From NCBI GenBank assembly GCA_963748815.1, contig CAVVKJ010000005.1, positions 1-64,000 on the forward strand: a DNA stretch of 64,000 bases, given 5' to 3'. The notes under the pieces are model-generated. The model saw only the letters and a list, made by a program, of their open reading frames with translations, searched no databases and had not been told where the DNA came from. Origin of the DNA: an uncultured Gemmatimonadales bacterium. Its GTDB lineage: Bacteria; Gemmatimonadota; Gemmatimonadetes; Gemmatimonadales; GWC2-71-9. Of this stretch, positions 20,076-30,700 are shown in pieces. The stretch's first letter is position 1, and the number at the start of each line of letters is the position of its first letter. The position numbers and the translations under genes were made by a program.

Positions 20076-21299
20076 ATGACCGAGGCGCCTGTCCTCTTCA
20101 CCGTGTATCCCGGGGACTGCGACACCTACGGGCACCTCAACCAGGCGTCCTTCCTCGCCTATTTCGAGCGGGCGCGGTGGCAGATGCTCGCCGCCGGTCC
20201 TGGCATGGATCTCTTCGAGCGCGCCGGTGTCTGGCCGGCCGTCCGGCGGGCGGTCGTCGAGTATCACGCCCCCGCCTATCCCGGTCAGGCGCTCCGCTTC
20301 CAGCTGGCCGTCACCCGGCTCGGTCGGACGAGCTTCACGATGCGGCAGGTCGCGCGCCGCGAGGCCGATGACGTGCTCATCGCCACCGCCGAGTCGGTCT
20401 TCGTCTGCATCGACCGCAAGGGCTCGGCGGTCCCGATCCCGCCCCCCGTCAGGGAATTCCTCCTCCCCGCCCTTCCGTCGGCGACCGCCTCGCAGCGTCG
20501 CATCGCCGTCCACGGAGTGGAACTGGCTCTCGACGACCGCGGCAGCGGGCCGGCGCTGCTCTTCGTCCACGGATATCCCCTGGACGGCACCCTCTGGCGG
20601 CATCAGGCGGGCGCCTTCCCTGGATGGCGGACCCTGGTGCCCGACCTCCGCGGGCTGGGACGTTCTGACGCGCCGGATCTCGGCTACAGCATGGCCACCT
20701 ACGTCGACGATCTGGTCGCCCTGCTCGACGCCATCGGCGTCGACGACGTGGTGTTGGTGGGGTTGTCGATGGGAGGCTACGTCGCATTCGAGTTCCTCCG
20801 CCGTCATCGGCCTCGGGTGCGAGGCCTGGCGCTTGTCGACACGCGAGCCCAGGCCGACAGCGCGGAGGGGCGCCGCGCCCGGGAGACCGCCATGGCCGAT
20901 GCCCGTGAGGGCGGGGCGCCGCTCATCGCCGACCAGATGTTGCCGAAACTCCTTGCGACGGGCGCTCCGGAGCCGCTGCGCGAGGCGGTGCGGTCCATGA
21001 TGGCGGCCAATCCGGTGCCGGGGATTGTCGGCGCGCTCGCCGCCATGCGCGATCGTCCCGATGCAACGGAACTGCTCCCCTCGCTCGGCGGCTTGCCCAC
21101 GCTCGTGGTGGTCGGTGGGGAGGACGTCATCACCCCTCCGGCGACGGCGGAGGCGATGGCCAAGTCGATTCCCGGAGCGAGATTGGCGCTGATCCCGGGG
21201 GCCGGGCACCTGTCTCCCCTGGAGCAGCCGGAGGTGTTCAACCGGCACCTTCAGATGCTGCTGGACCAGGTGGGCGGGAGTGGCGGGCCGGGAAGGTGA
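20076..21299 (+). CDS. Fusion of a hotdog acyl-CoA thioesterase and an alpha/beta hydrolase
   Basis: N-terminal DCDTYGHLNQASFLAYFERAR (4HBT-like); C-terminal HGYPLD, DLRGLGRS, GLSMGG, GEDVIT, GAGHL. Confidence 0.88.
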   Translation: MTEAPVLFTVYPGDCDTYGHLNQASFLAYFERARWQMLAAGPGMDLFERAGVWPAVRRAVVEYHAPAYPGQALRFQLAVTRLGRTSFTMRQVARREADDVLIATAESVFVCIDRKGSAVPIPPPVREFLLPALPSATASQRRIAVHGVELALDDRGSGPALLFVHGYPLDGTLWRHQAGAFPGWRTLVPDLRGLGRSDAPDLGYSMATYVDDLVALLDAIGVDDVVLVGLSMGGYVAFEFLRRHRPRVRGLALVDTRAQADSAEGRRARETAMADAREGGAPLIADQMLPKLLATGAPEPLREAVRSMMAANPVPGIVGALAAMRDRPDATELLPSLGGLPTLVVVGGEDVITPPATAEAMAKSIPGARLALIPGAGHLSPLEQPEVFNRHLQMLLDQVGGSGGPGR

Positions 21300-21334
21300 A
21301 ACCTTTTGGCCCTCTCAGGTGTCTTATCTAGTGA

Positions 21335-21527
21335 GGCGCCGGTTCGGCTGGTATCACGCCGGCCTCCGACGTTTCAGTAATCCTTCCAACTACGGCTCCG
21401 GGACCGCGGCCAGGCAGTACGGTTCCGGGGCCGCCTCGCGTCCAGCCCCCAACCACTTTATCCGCGCGTCGCACCGACTCGCCCTTGCCTGCCACTGGGT
21501 GCCGGGCGAACCTTTGGGTTCGGCACC
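21335..21527 (+). ncRNA. Candidate structured non-coding RNA (rod with central bubble, 6S-like)
   Basis: Long-range stem GGTTCGGCTGGTATC/GGTGCCGGGCGAACC, short CGACG/CGTCG pairing, 14-bp apical stem CGGCTCCGGGACCG/CGGTTCCGGGGCCG. Five G-U pairs work only on the + strand. Lies in a 286-nt gap between convergent genes. Confidence 0.5.
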
Positions 21528-21532
21528 GTACA

Positions 21533-21563
21533 CAGAAACGGCGCCACCTTCCGGGCGGCGCCG
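21533..21563 (-). terminator. Intrinsic terminator of the ferredoxin gene
   Basis: Minus strand: CGGCGCCGCC-CGGAA-GGTGGCGCCG followed by TTTCTG. Confidence 0.7.
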
Positions 21564-21585
21564 CGTCGTTCATCCGGCGGTTGGG

Positions 21586-21849
21586 TTAGCGGTCGGGCCG
21601 GCCGGGCGGATTGTCGCCCTCGAATACTTCCTTGTTCTTCTCGATGAATGCGGTGTACTGCGGCGGAACGTCCTCTTCCGGGAAGATCGCGGTGACCGGG
21701 CACTCCGGTTCGCAGGCGCCACAATCGATGCACTCGTCCGCGTTGATGTAGAGCTGGTCTTCGCCTTCGTAGATGCAATCCACCGGGCAAACGTCGACGC
21801 ATGCCCGATCCTTGACACCGATGCAGGGTTCCGTGATCACGTACGTCAT
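21586..21849 (-). CDS. Ferredoxin (FdxA / 7Fe-8Fe dicluster family)
   Basis: [26 protein letters not shown]...[14 protein letters not shown]. Confidence 0.95.
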
Positions 21850-24902: not shown

Positions 24903-25004
24903 ATTCAAACGGGTTCGACCCAATGTGCCAGATGCCAAGGATCCCCGCGGTTAAGCAATTCCCTGTGGCTGCCCTTGACACCTTGACAGCCGTTCGCACC
25001 TTCG

Positions 25005-25069
25005 GCCCCGCTGCCCCGCTGCCGCTGCCCCGCTGCCCCGCTGCCCCGCTGCCCCGCTGCCCCGCTGCC
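25005..25069. repeat. Octamer tandem repeat (GCCCCGCT)n
   Basis: Seven full GCCCCGCT units, one 6-nt unit and a partial unit, read directly from the sequence. Confidence 0.95.
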
Positions 25070-25162: not shown

Positions 25163-25867
25163 ATGGCCATACCGATCGCCCATCTTCGCGCATCCGCCGC
25201 CCTTCCGGTCGGCTACAAGGGGCCACGAGCATCCATTCTCGTGGAACTCAAGCTCGCCCCCGGCGTGACGGCCAAGGAGCTCGCGGGGCGTCTCGGACTC
25301 TCGCTGAACGCGATCCGGCATCACCTCAAGGAACTCGAGGTCGACGGGCTGCTGGAGCACGAGCGCGAGCAGCGGGGCGTTGGTGCGCCGGTGTTTGCCT
25401 ATCGGCTGTCGCCGGCCGGGGAGCAGGTCTTCCCGCGGCGGTACGAGTCGGCGCTGACCGACGTCCTCGAGACGCTGGTGGAGCGGGAGGGCCGTGAGGC
25501 GGTCGTGGGTGCCCTCGAGGCGCGGTACGCCGCACTCCTCCGGCGCCTGCCGGCCGACCTCGCGGAGCTGCCGTCCGAGCGACGCCTGGCTGCCGTCACC
25601 CGGCTGCTGAACGAGGACGGCTTCATGCCGGGGTGGGAGGGTTCGGCGGAGGGGGGCACCCTCACCGAACACAACTGCGCCATCCGCGCTGTCGCGGAGC
25701 GCTTTCCTGAAATCTGCGCCGCTGAAGAGCGGTTCCTGAGCGCCGCCCTCGGCGCCTCCGTCGACCTGCAGGCGCACGTCCTCGACGGCTGTGCCGCCTG
25801 CGAATACCAGGTGCAGTTCACCCCGCCGGTGTCCATCGGGATCACCCGGCCCCAGGGAGTCAATTGA
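25163..25867 (+). CDS. sufR: SufR-like HTH transcriptional regulator
   Basis: N-terminal HTH ([23 protein letters not shown]), FPRRY, C-terminal HNC...CAAE...CAAC Fe-S ligands; first gene of the suf operon. Confidence 0.85.
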
Positions 25868-27303
25868 TGACCTCGCCCGTCGAATCCTACGTGCAGCAGG
25901 ACTACAAGTACGGCTTCGTGACCGACATCGAGGCTGATACCGTCCCGCGCGGCCTCAGCGAAGACACCATCCGGCTGATTTCCGCCAAGAAGGAAGAGCC
26001 GGCCTTTCTGCTGGAGTGGCGGCTGGCCGCCTACCGGCGCTGGCTCACGATGACGGAACCGCACTGGCCCAACGTGCAGTATCCGCCCATCGACTACCAG
26101 GACATCATCTACTACTCGGCGCCCAGGCAGGTGAAGCCGCTCGGCTCGCTCGACGAGGTCGATCCGGAGCTCCTCGCCACCTACGAAAAGCTCGGCATTT
26201 CGCTCTCCGAGCAGAAGCGGCTCTCCGGCGTGGCGGTGGACGCCATCTTCGACAGCGTCTCGGTGGCCACCACCTTCAAGGAGAAGCTGAAGGAGTCCGG
26301 CGTCATATTCTGCTCGTTCTCCGAGGCGGTCAAGGAACACCCCGAGCTCGTAAAGCAGTACCTGGGCAGCGTGGTGCCGGCGGGCGACAACTTTTTCGCC
26401 GCGCTCAACGCCGCGGTGTTCACCGACGGGTCGTTCGTGTTCATTCCGAAGGGCGTGACGTGCCCGATGGAGCTGTCCACGTACTTCCGCATCAACGCCG
26501 CCGACACCGGCCAGTTCGAGCGCACCCTCATCGTGGCCGAGGAAGGCGCCACCGTGAGCTATCTCGAGGGGTGCACCGCGCCCAAGCGGGACACCAACCA
26601 GTTGCACGCCGCGGTGGTCGAGTTGGTGGCGCTCGAGGGGGCCACCATCAAGTACAGCACGGTCCAGAACTGGTACGCGGGCGACAGCGAGGGTGTGGGG
26701 GGCATCTACAACTTCGTGACCAAGCGGGGGAAGTGCGCCGGCGCGCGCTCGCGCATCACCTGGACGCAGGTCGAGACGGGGTCGTCCATCACCTGGAAGT
26801 ATCCCAGCGTCATTCTCCAGGGCGACGACTCGATCGGCGAGTTCTACTCGGTGGCCGTGGTGAACAACCGCCAGCAGGCGGACACCGGCACCAAGATGAT
26901 CCACGTCGGGAAAAACACGAAGAGCACCATCATTTCCAAGGGCATCTCCGCCGGCCGCGGGCAGAACAGCTATCGCGGCCTGGTCAAGATGCTCCCCAAG
27001 GCCATCGGCGCCCGCAACTACACGCAGTGCGACTCGATGCTCATCGGGAACGCCTGCGGGGCCCACACCTTCCCGTATATCGACGTGCAGCATCCGAGCG
27101 CGTCGGTGGAGCACGAGGCGTCTACGTCGAAGATCGGCGAGGACCAGATTTTCTACTGCAAGCAGCGCGGCCTCGACACCGAGGACGCGATCTCGATGAT
27201 CGTCAACGGGTTCTGCAAGGACGTCTTCCAGAACCTGCCCATGGAATTCGCCGTCGAGGCGCAGAAGCTCCTCGGCATCAGCCTCGAAGGCAGCGTCGGC
27301 TGA
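25867..27303 (+). CDS. sufB: Fe-S cluster assembly protein SufB
   Basis: [59 protein letters not shown]. Confidence 0.98.
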
Positions 27304-27348
27304 ATCACCGGCGCCCGCTCGGCGGGCGCCATTCGGGAGACCACGCAC

Positions 27349-28107
27349 GTGCTTGAAATCAAGAACCTGACCGCCACCGCCAGCGGCGTTGAAATCCTTC
27401 GCGGCATTTCCCTCACCGTCCACGCCGGCGAGGTCCACGCCATCATGGGCCCGAACGGCAGCGGCAAGAGCACGCTGGCGCAGGTGCTGGCGGGCCACCC
27501 CGCCTACGAAGTGACCGGCGGGTCCGTGACCTACAAGGGGCAGGATCTGCTCGACATGGAGCCGGAGGCGCGGGCGCAGGCCGGCGTTTTCCTGGCGTTC
27601 CAGTATCCGGTGGAAATCCCCGGCGTCACCAACGCCTATTTCCTGCGCGCCGCGTATAACGCCAAGCGGACGGCCGAGGGGAAGGAAGAGCTCGACCCGA
27701 TGGACTTCCTCGACCTGCTCGAGGAGAAGCTCAAGCTGGTCGAGTGGGGTCCCGAGATCATGAGCCGCGCGGTCAACGCCGGCTTCTCCGGCGGTGAAAA
27801 GAAGCGGAACGAGATCCTCCAGATGGCGGTGCTCGAGCCGTCGCTCGCGATCCTGGATGAAACCGACTCCGGGCTCGACATCGACGCGCTCAAGATCGTC
27901 GCCGAGGGGGTGAACTCCCTCCGGCGCGCTGACAGCGCCACCATCGTGGTGACGCACTACCAGCGGCTCCTGAACCACATCGTGCCCGACTACGTGCACG
28001 TCCTCGCCGGCGGGCGCATCGTCCGCTCGGGCGGCAAGGAGCTGGCCTTGGAGCTCGAGGAGCGCGGGTACGAGTGGCTTACCGAGGCGGCAGGAGCCGT
28101 CGCGTGA
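27349..28107 (+). CDS. sufC: Fe-S cluster assembly ATPase SufC
   Basis: GPNGSGKST, FQYPVEIPGV, FSGGEKKRNE, LDETDSGLDIDAL. Confidence 0.98.
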   Translation: MLEIKNLTATASGVEILRGISLTVHAGEVHAIMGPNGSGKSTLAQVLAGHPAYEVTGGSVTYKGQDLLDMEPEARAQAGVFLAFQYPVEIPGVTNAYFLRAAYNAKRTAEGKEELDPMDFLDLLEEKLKLVEWGPEIMSRAVNAGFSGGEKKRNEILQMAVLEPSLAILDETDSGLDIDALKIVAEGVNSLRRADSATIVVTHYQRLLNHIVPDYVHVLAGGRIVRSGGKELALELEERGYEWLTEAAGAVA

Positions 28108-29435
28108 CCGCCACCCGAACTCCCGTGGCCCCGTCGCCCCGCGTCACCGAACCGGGGTGGGTCGCGGAATGGCGGCGCGACGGCGCGGCCCGGTATGAAG
28201 GGTTGCGCCTCCCGACCACGCGTGACGAAGACTGGCGCTTTACCGACCTGTCGCCCATCACCAAGGCGGCCCTCGGCCCCGCCCGCGCCCCCGGGGTGCT
28301 GACCGACGCCGACATCGCCCCGTTCCTGTTCGGGCACGCCGAATGGCCGAGGCTCGTCTTTGCCAACGGTCGCTATCAGCCGTCGCTCTCGAAGGTGACG
28401 GCCCTGCCGAAGGGCGCCCGCGTCGGCCCGCTCGCCGAGCTCCTCGCTGACGCACCCGAACTGGTCAAGGGCACCCTTGGGGCCCTCGCCGTACAGCCGG
28501 CGGCCGCGGCAATCGTCGGCCAGAACGCCTCGGCGTTCCTCGACGGCTACGCCATTGTGCTGCCCGCCGGCGCCGTGGTCGACACCCCGATCCACGTGCT
28601 CTTCGTCTCCGACAGCCGCGCCGCGCAGGGCGCCGTATTTCCGCGCAACGTCGTGGTGCTGGGAGCCAACGCGGTCGCATCCGTCGTCGAGAGTTATGTG
28701 ACCCTCGCAGACCAGGTGGCCCTGACCAACACCGTCACCGAGGCCAGCCTGGCGGCCGGCGCGCGGTTCGACCACTGCAAGATCCAGCGGGAGAGCGCCC
28801 AGGCGTTCCACCTCGCCACCCTCGAAGTGCGCCAGGAGCGGGACAGCTACCTCAACTCGTTCTCCTTTGCGCAGGGCGCGGCGTTGTCGCGCACCAACAT
28901 CTACACCACGCTGGCGGGGCCGGGCGCCCACGCCACCCTCTACGGGCTGTACCTGGCCGAGGGGCGTCAGCACGTCGACCACCAGACCCGCATCGAGCAC
29001 GCCGCCCCCGACTGCACCAGCTGGGAGGTGTACAAGGGCATCCTCGATGGCCACGGCCACGGGGTGTTCAACGGCAAGGTGTATGTGCACCCGGAGGCGC
29101 AGAAGACAGACGGCAAGCAGACCAACAAGAACCTGCTGCTGTCCGAGACGGCCAAGGTGGACACCAAGCCGCAGCTCGAGATCTTCGCCGACGACGTGAA
29201 GTGCACCCACGGCGCCACGGTGGGCAGCCTCGACGCCGTGCCGCTCTTCTACTGCCGGAGCCGCGGGATCGCCGAGGCGGAGGCGCGGACCCTCCTGACC
29301 TACGCGTTCGCGGCGGATGTGCTGGAAGAAATCCGGAACCGGCCGGTGGTGGATCATCTCGAGGAGCTGATGCGTGGGTGGTTGTCGAAAGCGGGCAGGC
29401 GGGGAAGCGGGTCGGTGGGGAAGGAAGCGATCTGA
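28104..29435 (+). CDS. sufD: Fe-S cluster assembly protein SufD
   Basis: EDWRFTDL, VFNGKVYV, AQKTD, KPQLEIFADDVKCTHGATVG. Confidence 0.97.
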   Translation: MTATRTPVAPSPRVTEPGWVAEWRRDGAARYEGLRLPTTRDEDWRFTDLSPITKAALGPARAPGVLTDADIAPFLFGHAEWPRLVFANGRYQPSLSKVTALPKGARVGPLAELLADAPELVKGTLGALAVQPAAAAIVGQNASAFLDGYAIVLPAGAVVDTPIHVLFVSDSRAAQGAVFPRNVVVLGANAVASVVESYVTLADQVALTNTVTEASLAAGARFDHCKIQRESAQAFHLATLEVRQERDSYLNSFSFAQGAALSRTNIYTTLAGPGAHATLYGLYLAEGRQHVDHQTRIEHAAPDCTSWEVYKGILDGHGHGVFNGKVYVHPEAQKTDGKQTNKNLLLSETAKVDTKPQLEIFADDVKCTHGATVGSLDAVPLFYCRSRGIAEAEARTLLTYAFAADVLEEIRNRPVVDHLEELMRGWLSKAGRRGSGSVGKEAI

Positions 29436-29437
29436 CC

Positions 29438-30700
29438 GTGTCCGCCACATCGGCTTCCCCGCTTCCCCGCGTCCCCGCCAAGGGCCTCGACGTCGCCTCC
29501 ATCCGCGCCGATTTTCCCATTCTCGGCACACGGGTCAACGGGAAGCCGCTGGTGTATCTCGACAACGCGGCAACGGCCCAGCGGCCGCTCGCGGTGATCG
29601 ACGCGGTGCGGCGGTCGATGGCGGAGGAGAACGCCAACATCCACCGCGGGGTGCACTACCTGAGCGAGCGGGCCACGCTGGAGTACGACGCGGTGCGGGA
29701 GGACGCGCGGGCGTTCCTCAACGCCCCCGCCAGCCACGAAGTGATTTTCGTGCGTGGCACGACCGAGGGGATCAACCTGGTGGCGCAGAGCTATGGCCGG
29801 AGTACCCTCCAGCCCGGCGACGAAATCCTCCTCACCACCATGGAACACCACAGCAATATCGTCCCCTGGCAGATCGTGGCCGGGCAGACCGGTGCGGTGG
29901 TCCGCCCCATCCCGATCACCGACGCCGGCGAAGTCGACCTCGACGCCTATCGGAAGCTGCTGAGCCCGCGCACCCGCATCGTCGGCGTCGTGCACATCTC
30001 CAACGCCCTGGGAACCATCAATCCGGTGGCGGAGATGACCCGCCTGGCGCACGAGGTCGGCGCGGTGGTGGTGGTCGACGGCGCGCAGGCTGCCCCGCAC
30101 ACGCCGGTGGATGTGCAGGCGCTGGGCTGTGACTTCTATGCCTGTTCCGGCCACAAGATGTTCGGGCCCACCGGCGTCGGGCTCCTCTGGGGCCGCTCCG
30201 TGCTCCTCGAGTCGATGCCCCCCTGGCAGGGGGGCGGCGACATGATCCACACCGTGAGCTTTGCGGGGACGACCTTCGCGCCGCTGCCGGCCAAGTTCGA
30301 GGCGGGCACGCCGGCCATTGCCGAGGTGATCGGTCTGGGGGCCGCGATCCGCTATATCCGGAGCGTCGGTTTCGAGGCCATCGGGGCCTGGGAACACGAG
30401 CTCCTGACCCGTGCCACCGAAGCGGTGCGCGAGGTGCCGGGCATTCGGCTTGTCGGCACCGCACGCGAGAAGGCGGGCGTCCTCTCCTTCACGCTGGAGG
30501 GGGTGCACCCGCACGATCTCGGCACCATCCTCGACGCTGACGGGGTGGCCATCCGGGCGGGACACCATTGCGCCCAGCCGGTCATGGAGCGCTTCGGCGT
30601 GCACGCCACCGCGCGCGCCTCGTTTGCCTTCTACAACACGCTTGAAGAAATCGACGTGCTGGTGCGCGGGCTGCACCGGGCCCGGGAGGTCTTTGCGTGA
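29438..30700 (+). CDS. sufS: Cysteine desulfurase SufS
   Basis: LVYLDNAAT, NIHRGVH, MEHHSNIVPWQ, SGHKMFGPTG, RAGHHCAQP. Confidence 0.97.
   Translation: MSATSASPLPRVPAKGLDVASIRADFPILGTRVNGKPLVYLDNAATAQRPLAVIDAVRRSMAEENANIHRGVHYLSERATLEYDAVREDARAFLNAPASHEVIFVRGTTEGINLVAQSYGRSTLQPGDEILLTTMEHHSNIVPWQIVAGQTGAVVRPIPITDAGEVDLDAYRKLLSPRTRIVGVVHISNALGTINPVAEMTRLAHEVGAVVVVDGAQAAPHTPVDVQALGCDFYACSGHKMFGPTGVGLLWGRSVLLESMPPWQGGGDMIHTVSFAGTTFAPLPAKFEAGTPAIAEVIGLGAAIRYIRSVGFEAIGAWEHELLTRATEAVREVPGIRLVGTAREKAGVLSFTLEGVHPHDLGTILDADGVAIRAGHHCAQPVMERFGVHATARASFAFYNTLEEIDVLVRGLHRAREVFA

Follow-up and report, generated by a model that had tools for sequence, protein, structure and literature searches.

What occupies the 286-nt gap that separates a hydrolase gene on the + strand from a convergent ferredoxin gene on the - strand in this uncultured Gemmatimonadales genome? 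The preliminary description, whose account of the gap itself we confirm, saw in it a rod-shaped RNA of ~180 nt on the + strand, either a divergent 6S RNA or an undescribed lineage-specific non-coding RNA, with a hint of a switch between folds. Our analysis of the window (the whole 64,000-nt stretch of DNA that was analysed) and of related genomes indicates that the gap holds a conserved, apparently undescribed RNA gene of ~110 nt with its own stress-type promoter. ECF-dependent small RNAs are a kind already known; judging by its sequence, this one is apparently undescribed, and it is shorter and otherwise folded than had been proposed. Conservation, covariation, a dedicated promoter and the lack of a match in Rfam agree with the earlier idea of an undescribed lineage-specific RNA on the + strand that is not a leader riboswitch, while the 6S identity, the rod and the switch find no support. 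The gap and its borders carry the following features:

20076 to 21299, + strand: thioesterase (4HBT) and alpha/beta hydrolase fusion by Pfam, its stop codon ending at 21299
21297 to 21302, + strand: TGAAAC, a -35 element of ECF-sigma type, which shares letters with the stop codon of the hydrolase gene and has a T-tract after it
21320 to 21323, + strand: ECF-type -10 element, TGTC, 17 nt after the -35
21332 to 21376, + strand: hairpin 1, variable in sequence, sequestering the 5' end and containing the 5' closing arm of the earlier rod
21377 to 21392, + strand: C/U-rich unpaired linker and putative seed, with TCCTTCC at 21381-21387
21393 to 21433, + strand: hairpin 2, a covarying 14-bp stem with an apical motif at 21407-21419, consensus CGGCCANGCAGTA
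21434 to 21445, + strand: pyrimidine tail, U-rich in the family, with few U in this genus
21485 to 21513, + strand: sigma70-like TTGCCT, 17 nt, GAACCT, genus-specific and overlapping the 3' closing arm of the earlier rod
21538 to 21564, - strand: intrinsic terminator of the ferredoxin gene, a conserved stem separate from the small RNA
21586 to 21849, - strand: 4Fe-4S ferredoxin by Pfam

The unit consists, in order, of an ECF-type promoter, a 5' hairpin, a single-stranded C/U linker and a covarying 3' hairpin with a conserved loop. Its median length over 125 distinct promoter-plus-loop units is 111 nt, and the range of 58-122 nt with free insertions and deletions, together with inverted copies, marks it as non-coding and independent of its neighbours; in this genome no start codon with a ribosome-binding site lies inside it. 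Hairpin 1 is 95-97% paired in 15 genus sequences, with two pairs changed on both sides, and the 5' end of the unit is paired in 101 of 109 long units. At least five homologs (L018, L027, L287, L338 and L342) lack this hairpin, as confirmed by eye within an automated count of 16 that includes a few mis-anchored units. The linker has a median unpaired probability of 0.85 (n = 108), its TCCTTCC is complementary to the Shine-Dalgarno-like GGAAGGA, and CCT[A/T]CC is found in 49 of 64 metagenome matches, or 56 of 64 when the looser CC..CC is allowed.

The 14-bp stem of hairpin 2 had been recognized earlier as an apical stem, and it is here that the comparison with relatives gave a strong signal of covariation: both partners have changed at 8 of the 14 pairs when 14 sequences are aligned with MAFFT (0/500 shuffles), and at 11 of the 14 in 49 model-fitted sequences. 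The loop stays nearly fixed while the stem covaries, and in the main clade it is better conserved than the linker. In a fold of 200 nt, two of the 15 genus sequences, that of this genome being one, replace hairpin 2 by other pairings. Over 136 units, pyrimidines make up 80% of the tail and T 42%, compared with 17% T at the opposite-strand side; as it is pyrimidine-rich on the + strand only, the strand is fixed and termination suggested. Many homologs carry a U-rich tail directly after the formerly "apical" stem, so that the conserved structure ends as an intrinsic terminator does, with a tail that is weak in this genus. Hairpin 2 is likely to be such a terminator, and it is possible that it is also a protein dock.

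The structure of hairpin 2 is established, and so is the coupling of the RNA to a promoter. The -35 TGAAAC is invariant in 15/15 genus sequences, and the 125 distinct units show TGAAAC (102), TGCAAC (18) or CGAAAC (5); the -10 is CGTC, CGTT or CGTA in most homologs, the TGTC of this genome being a minority form (7/125). The start site would lie near 21330-21333, and the "AT-richer stretch" noted upstream of the rod is real, being the end of this -10 element and the start region. Since the -35 lies tens of bases beyond the hydrolase stop in several relatives, it is not a stop-codon artefact. The pattern TG[A/C]AAC, 17 nt, [C/T]GT stands upstream of almost all strong matches to our model, and an independent test, in which metagenomes were searched by the hairpin-2 pattern alone, returned 68 stretches, 64 of them with enough flank (59 distinct). 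Under a strict -10, the promoter motif was found at spacer 17 in 59/64 and otherwise only at spacers 13 (4 times), 20 (10) and 22 (2); a looser -10 gives 22 and 33 at spacers 13 and 15. Across 49 hydrolase loci, RNA and promoter are both present at 27, both missing at 20 and found singly at 2, though these loci are kin, partly overlap the earlier genomes and are not independent samples; they were drawn from 80, after exclusion of six genus loci matching known ones, two truncated loci and those labeled as other phyla. Twenty syntenic loci from genomes without a model match included two with the promoter, both preceding a divergent version of the RNA. Promoter and RNA are also inverted as a block relative to the flanking genes in L193 and L306, which means that no fixed neighbor is needed. 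Together these patterns point to an ECF-type promoter that is the RNA's own, at fixed spacing, and show promoter and RNA gained, lost and inverted together. A scan limited to sigma70 types found no promoter. PMC5758882 gives tgaAACntttt with CGTA/CGTC for the envelope-stress ECF promoters of B. subtilis, a form that the present promoter shares, including the T-tract at spacer positions 2-5.

The nearest relatives of the flanking hydrolase, at 76-85% identity, are recorded as uncultured Gemmatimonadales/Gemmatimonadetes. BLAST detected the gap in 14/16 genus genomes, and gaps beside ferredoxin orthologs in more distant genera share its core. A covariance model of the linker and hairpin 2, built from 14 sequences, matched 56/150 family genomes at E 0.01 and 44/150 at E<1e-6, 12 of the 44 having supplied training sequences; the genome studied here (G000, 86% complete) holds one strong copy. 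In the order's two other families, weak matches occurred in 3/61 and 0/27 genomes, the three being plain hairpins without the promoter, and the 121 class genomes outside the family gave a single weak match. The promoter-plus-seed pattern had 13 scattered matches outside the family, judged by eye not to be this RNA, and viral contigs had none. A paralogous class occupies six loci elsewhere (L077, L080, L279, L289, L307 and L320), where a GCAACC...GCATC promoter and a different linker, with no hairpin 1, precede the same hairpin 2. No copy of this class was found in our genome, in which its promoter type also precedes a third ECF gene. The paralog swaps promoter and linker and keeps hairpin 2, as would be expected if the linker selects targets.

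The promoter motif is enriched before genes, which gives an indication of the regulon. In this genome, by our own rough gene calls, 24 copies of the motif at spacer 17 fall within 120 nt of a gene start, compared with 0-3 for any other spacer. Twelve proteins behind such sites were scanned and seven have Pfam families, among them M48 peptidase, PadR, outer-membrane efflux protein, met-zincin and MacB permease; another site runs into the end of the SigW-like ECF gene described below and precedes the anti-sigma of that factor. With proteases, transporters, PadR regulators and an anti-sigma behind them, these ~24 sites would constitute a SigW-like envelope-stress regulon. Example sites in G000 are C5:464427, C5:475236, C9:22472, C10:976833 and C17:119367. 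The ECF gene at G000:C5:464425-465030, which has a zinc-finger anti-sigma partner, obtains its best NCBIfam score, which falls short of the equivalog cut-off, with SigW. The promoter of a second ECF gene, at C9:144836, is similar in 9/29 genomes and within the genus, but its -10 is mostly ATCC/GTCC across the family, which makes the SigW-like factor the better guess, and it is this factor that most likely drives the RNA. As a separate observation, the ECF genes C9:144836-146106 and C5:218248-218802 have apparently autoregulatory, nearly leaderless promoters, and that of the C9 gene is conserved across the family in a CAACC...TCCAA form.

We favor, with a probability of roughly 0.55, the reading that this is a stand-alone small RNA which acts by base-pairing through its linker as the repressing arm of an envelope-stress regulon. 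That it is a stand-alone, ECF-driven RNA seems to us very probable, and, given this, base-pairing would be its likely mode of action. In the mechanism that we infer, from transcription and sigma factor through to base-pairing, repression and targets, an ECF sigma of the lineage would start transcription just past the hydrolase gene. Hairpin 1 would shield the 5' end of the RNA, and hairpin 2 would end and protect it. The exposed C/U linker would pair with purine-rich ribosome-binding sites of distant mRNAs and block their translation, so that the RNA probably regulates the messages of other genes and would serve, without Hfq, as the repressing non-coding arm of the ECF regulon. A sigma factor alone only activates, and small RNAs add a repressing arm to ECF regulons in Proteobacteria and Fusobacterium; the layout seen here fits that role.

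The layout of a seed followed by a terminator is that of MicA, RybB, VrrA and MicV. The present RNA resembles these in this layout and in its ECF promoter; they need Hfq, however, and its promoter has the B. subtilis SigW/M/V form, unlike theirs. PMC9546586 names MicA and RybB (E. coli) and VrrA and MicV (Vibrio) as the non-coding arm of sigmaE, and FoxI of Fusobacterium nucleatum as a sigmaE-dependent RNA of 87 nt whose C-containing seed pairs across Shine-Dalgarno regions with no Hfq. FoxI and the present element are both short RNAs under ECF-type control with a C-containing seed or linker in a host where Hfq was not found; the present RNA differs in its conserved loop motif and its paralog under a second ECF promoter, and no Rfam hit links the two. 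If our reading is true, the design of an ECF sigma with a repressing small RNA extends to the Gemmatimonadota, an abundant and barely studied phylum, and gains a further case without Hfq. Promoter, seed-like linker and loop motif provide three separate experimental handles, and the paralog amounts to a swap experiment done by nature. By-products of the analysis are the 24-site ECF promoter set and a likely 6S RNA missed by the Rfam cut-off.

Contigs from RNA libraries cover the region but carry neither ends nor strand, and since the best begins before the predicted start, it may derive from DNA or from read-through of the hydrolase gene; eight RNA-library runs contained at most 0.15 of the region's words, and the four compared were all assembled contigs. 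The best genome-wide duplex of the real linker (-19.3) falls within the range of 12 shuffled linkers (-18.8 to -22.6). The ribosome-binding site of dnaJ (G000:C14:167030-167045, L122), which falls within the last part of the gene before it, is complementary to the linker over 13 bp, and across 13 genomes of other genera its combined p is 4e-4, with 4/13 in the top 3% of leaders and poor pairing in the others. The match is nevertheless equalled by 3.4% of our genome's leaders and by shuffled linkers, shows no covariation and barely separates cognate from non-cognate duplexes (-18.8 vs -18.4); with its controls failed, dnaJ is a lead only. Another candidate, the anti-sigma behind the C9 ECF gene, was rejected, as its seed match occurs only within the genus.

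That no mRNA target passed the controls brings the loop forward. Its conservation could mean that the family is modular, with promoter and seed exchangeable between two ECF regulons and a fixed loop docking a novel RNA chaperone; we think this unlikely, and were it true the loop would be bait for finding the chaperone. A protein-binding role of the loop is in any case a serious rival to base-pairing. Stated fully, the same ECF-driven RNA would bind or titrate a protein through the hairpin-2 loop and the linker would be a spacer or nuclease site, which we regard as unlikely. The loop that is nearly fixed over a covarying stem while the linker drifts speaks for it, as does the survival of the loop in a paralog with another promoter and linker. 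Hfq was found in 0/61 family genomes, and CsrA, ProQ and KhpA/B were not found in our 86% complete genome, which is also on the side of this rival. It has to account, however, for a linker that is single-stranded and anti-Shine-Dalgarno-like and that is kept where the loop motif is lost: at least eight homologs (L105, L117, L180, L186, L190, L192, L214 and L224) have lost that motif yet retain promoter, hairpin 1, linker and terminator stem.

A cis-acting element, either a terminator of the hydrolase gene or a means of attenuating the antisense transcription that an ECF factor drives into the ferredoxin gene, with the free RNA irrelevant, would suit the position directly after the hydrolase stop, the hairpin with its U-tail and the contigs that run across the hydrolase end, and covariation of the stem is also expected of terminators. 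This explanation is nonetheless distinctly improbable to us: terminators need no conserved loop, linker or promoter of their own, the block lies the other way round in L193 and L306, stands without an adjacent ferredoxin in L075 and has its paralog elsewhere, and genomes without the RNA keep both flanking genes with an ordinary short gap.

The rod itself could persist in this genus only, if the transcript passed the weak tail to ~21560 and could switch into the longer fold. Its parts are present: the 15-nt arms at 21341-21355 and 21498-21512 with 14/15 pairs possible, the letters of the inner 5-bp CGACG/CGTCG helix, the 14-bp stem at 21393-21433 and five G-U pairs. The letters and pairs stand where they were reported; the rod does not exceed chance. 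The minimum-energy fold of the 193-nt stretch is not the rod (z = -0.89, 37/200 shuffles as stable), and of the 15 genus sequences folded, all 14 with letters at the closing stem give it a pairing probability of 0.00-0.01. Pairing over 15 genus sequences reaches 78% in the closing stem and 54% in the inner helix, and covariation is no better than in shuffles (168/500). The rival two-hairpin fold, by comparison, is 98% paired across the 15 sequences (5/500 shuffles) and more stable than nearly all shuffles (z = -2.68, 3/200 as stable). The rod, and with it the 6S-like fold, was rejected as no more stable than shuffles, devoid of covariation and of near-zero closing-stem probability, and the end-to-end switch loses its footing in that the conserved unit is ~110 nt and the 3' closing arm occurs in this genus only. 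The weak U-tail of the genus and the outer 11 closing-stem pairs, kept in most genus sequences mostly through C/T changes, leave a genus-only rod a slim chance. What is conserved on the 3' arm looks instead like a genus-specific promoter: TTGC[C/T]N, 17-18 nt, NANNNT is found in 15/15 genus sequences, substitutions halfway along the arm disrupt the pairs of the rod, and the last T, unpaired in the rod, is retained together with the upstream TTG. Among 1283 upstream regions genome-wide, the pattern, with a first base other than T, is most frequent at spacer 17. We infer that 21485-21513 is a sigma70-like promoter facing the ferredoxin terminator, and it may give an antisense RNA to ferredoxin.

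A divergent 6S RNA binding the sigma70 holoenzyme is the least credible reading and very nearly negligible, for although the slot looked empty, with no 6S above the Rfam cut-off in 61 genomes of the order and only ~40 nt, too little to fit anything, between zapA and the gene beside it, the element has an ECF promoter, the wrong length (58-122 nt), no rod, no covarying closing stem and a U-rich tail after its "apical" stem in many homologs, and contig C10 carries a rod that is 6S-like over its full length and has a sigma70 promoter. The ~110-nt unit and 6S RNA both have a long stem and an unpaired stretch rich in pyrimidines; two separate hairpins and the lack of a 6S score set the unit apart. 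RF00013 gave no match, whether at its gathering score or with the limit relaxed to E 10. Over the element, Rfam 15 gave nothing near a gathering score either in the window, where scores at E up to 10 were at chance level, or in 14 of the 68 metagenome homolog loci. The best Rfam score over the element, from the actinobacterial small RNA Ms_IGR-5 (RF02471), reflects a similar GC terminator stem and is at chance level (14 bits vs a gathering score of 45, E 0.63). Our literature searches found no paper joining Gemmatimonad and 6S RNA, and Gemmatimonad with small RNA, ECF and sigma gave nothing related and nothing on this lineage's RNAs; the main text of PMC5737381 lacks "gemmatimonad", and its supplements could contain a motif absent from Rfam.

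The C10 sequence (G000:C10:1044140-1044302, - strand; L087:241-403) is probably the 6S RNA of this order. It was reached by synteny from a weak 6S match in one relative and lies upstream of genes that we take to be queD and folE. It aligns to the whole 6S model, at 17.9 bits vs a cut-off of 46.4, has a TTGAC-17-TATCTT promoter and was found in 33/61 genomes, among which the order's two other families are represented. In 19 sequences it forms a rod with a central bulge, and 25/48 pairs of the rod have changed at both positions. According to PMC8414754, 6S RNA is a rod of 160-200 nt with a central bulge that binds the housekeeping holoenzyme, a definition that the rod, bulge and full-length alignment of the C10 sequence fit far better than does the element studied here, which lacks a rod of that length with a covarying closing stem and central bulge.

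Elsewhere in the window, an RNase P RNA of class A lies at 1782-2160 on the - strand (275.6 bits). An HTH regulator followed by SUF-like iron-sulfur assembly genes occupies 25163-30700 on the + strand, near the ferredoxin and an FeS_assembly_P gene; we presume from inspection by eye that these genes are a SUF operon. At ~25000-25060, before the HTH regulator, there is a short tandem repeat-like run whose translation is a repeated GSGAAGQR, and comparable short tandem runs are seen in the gaps of the relatives L029, L031, L039 and L093.
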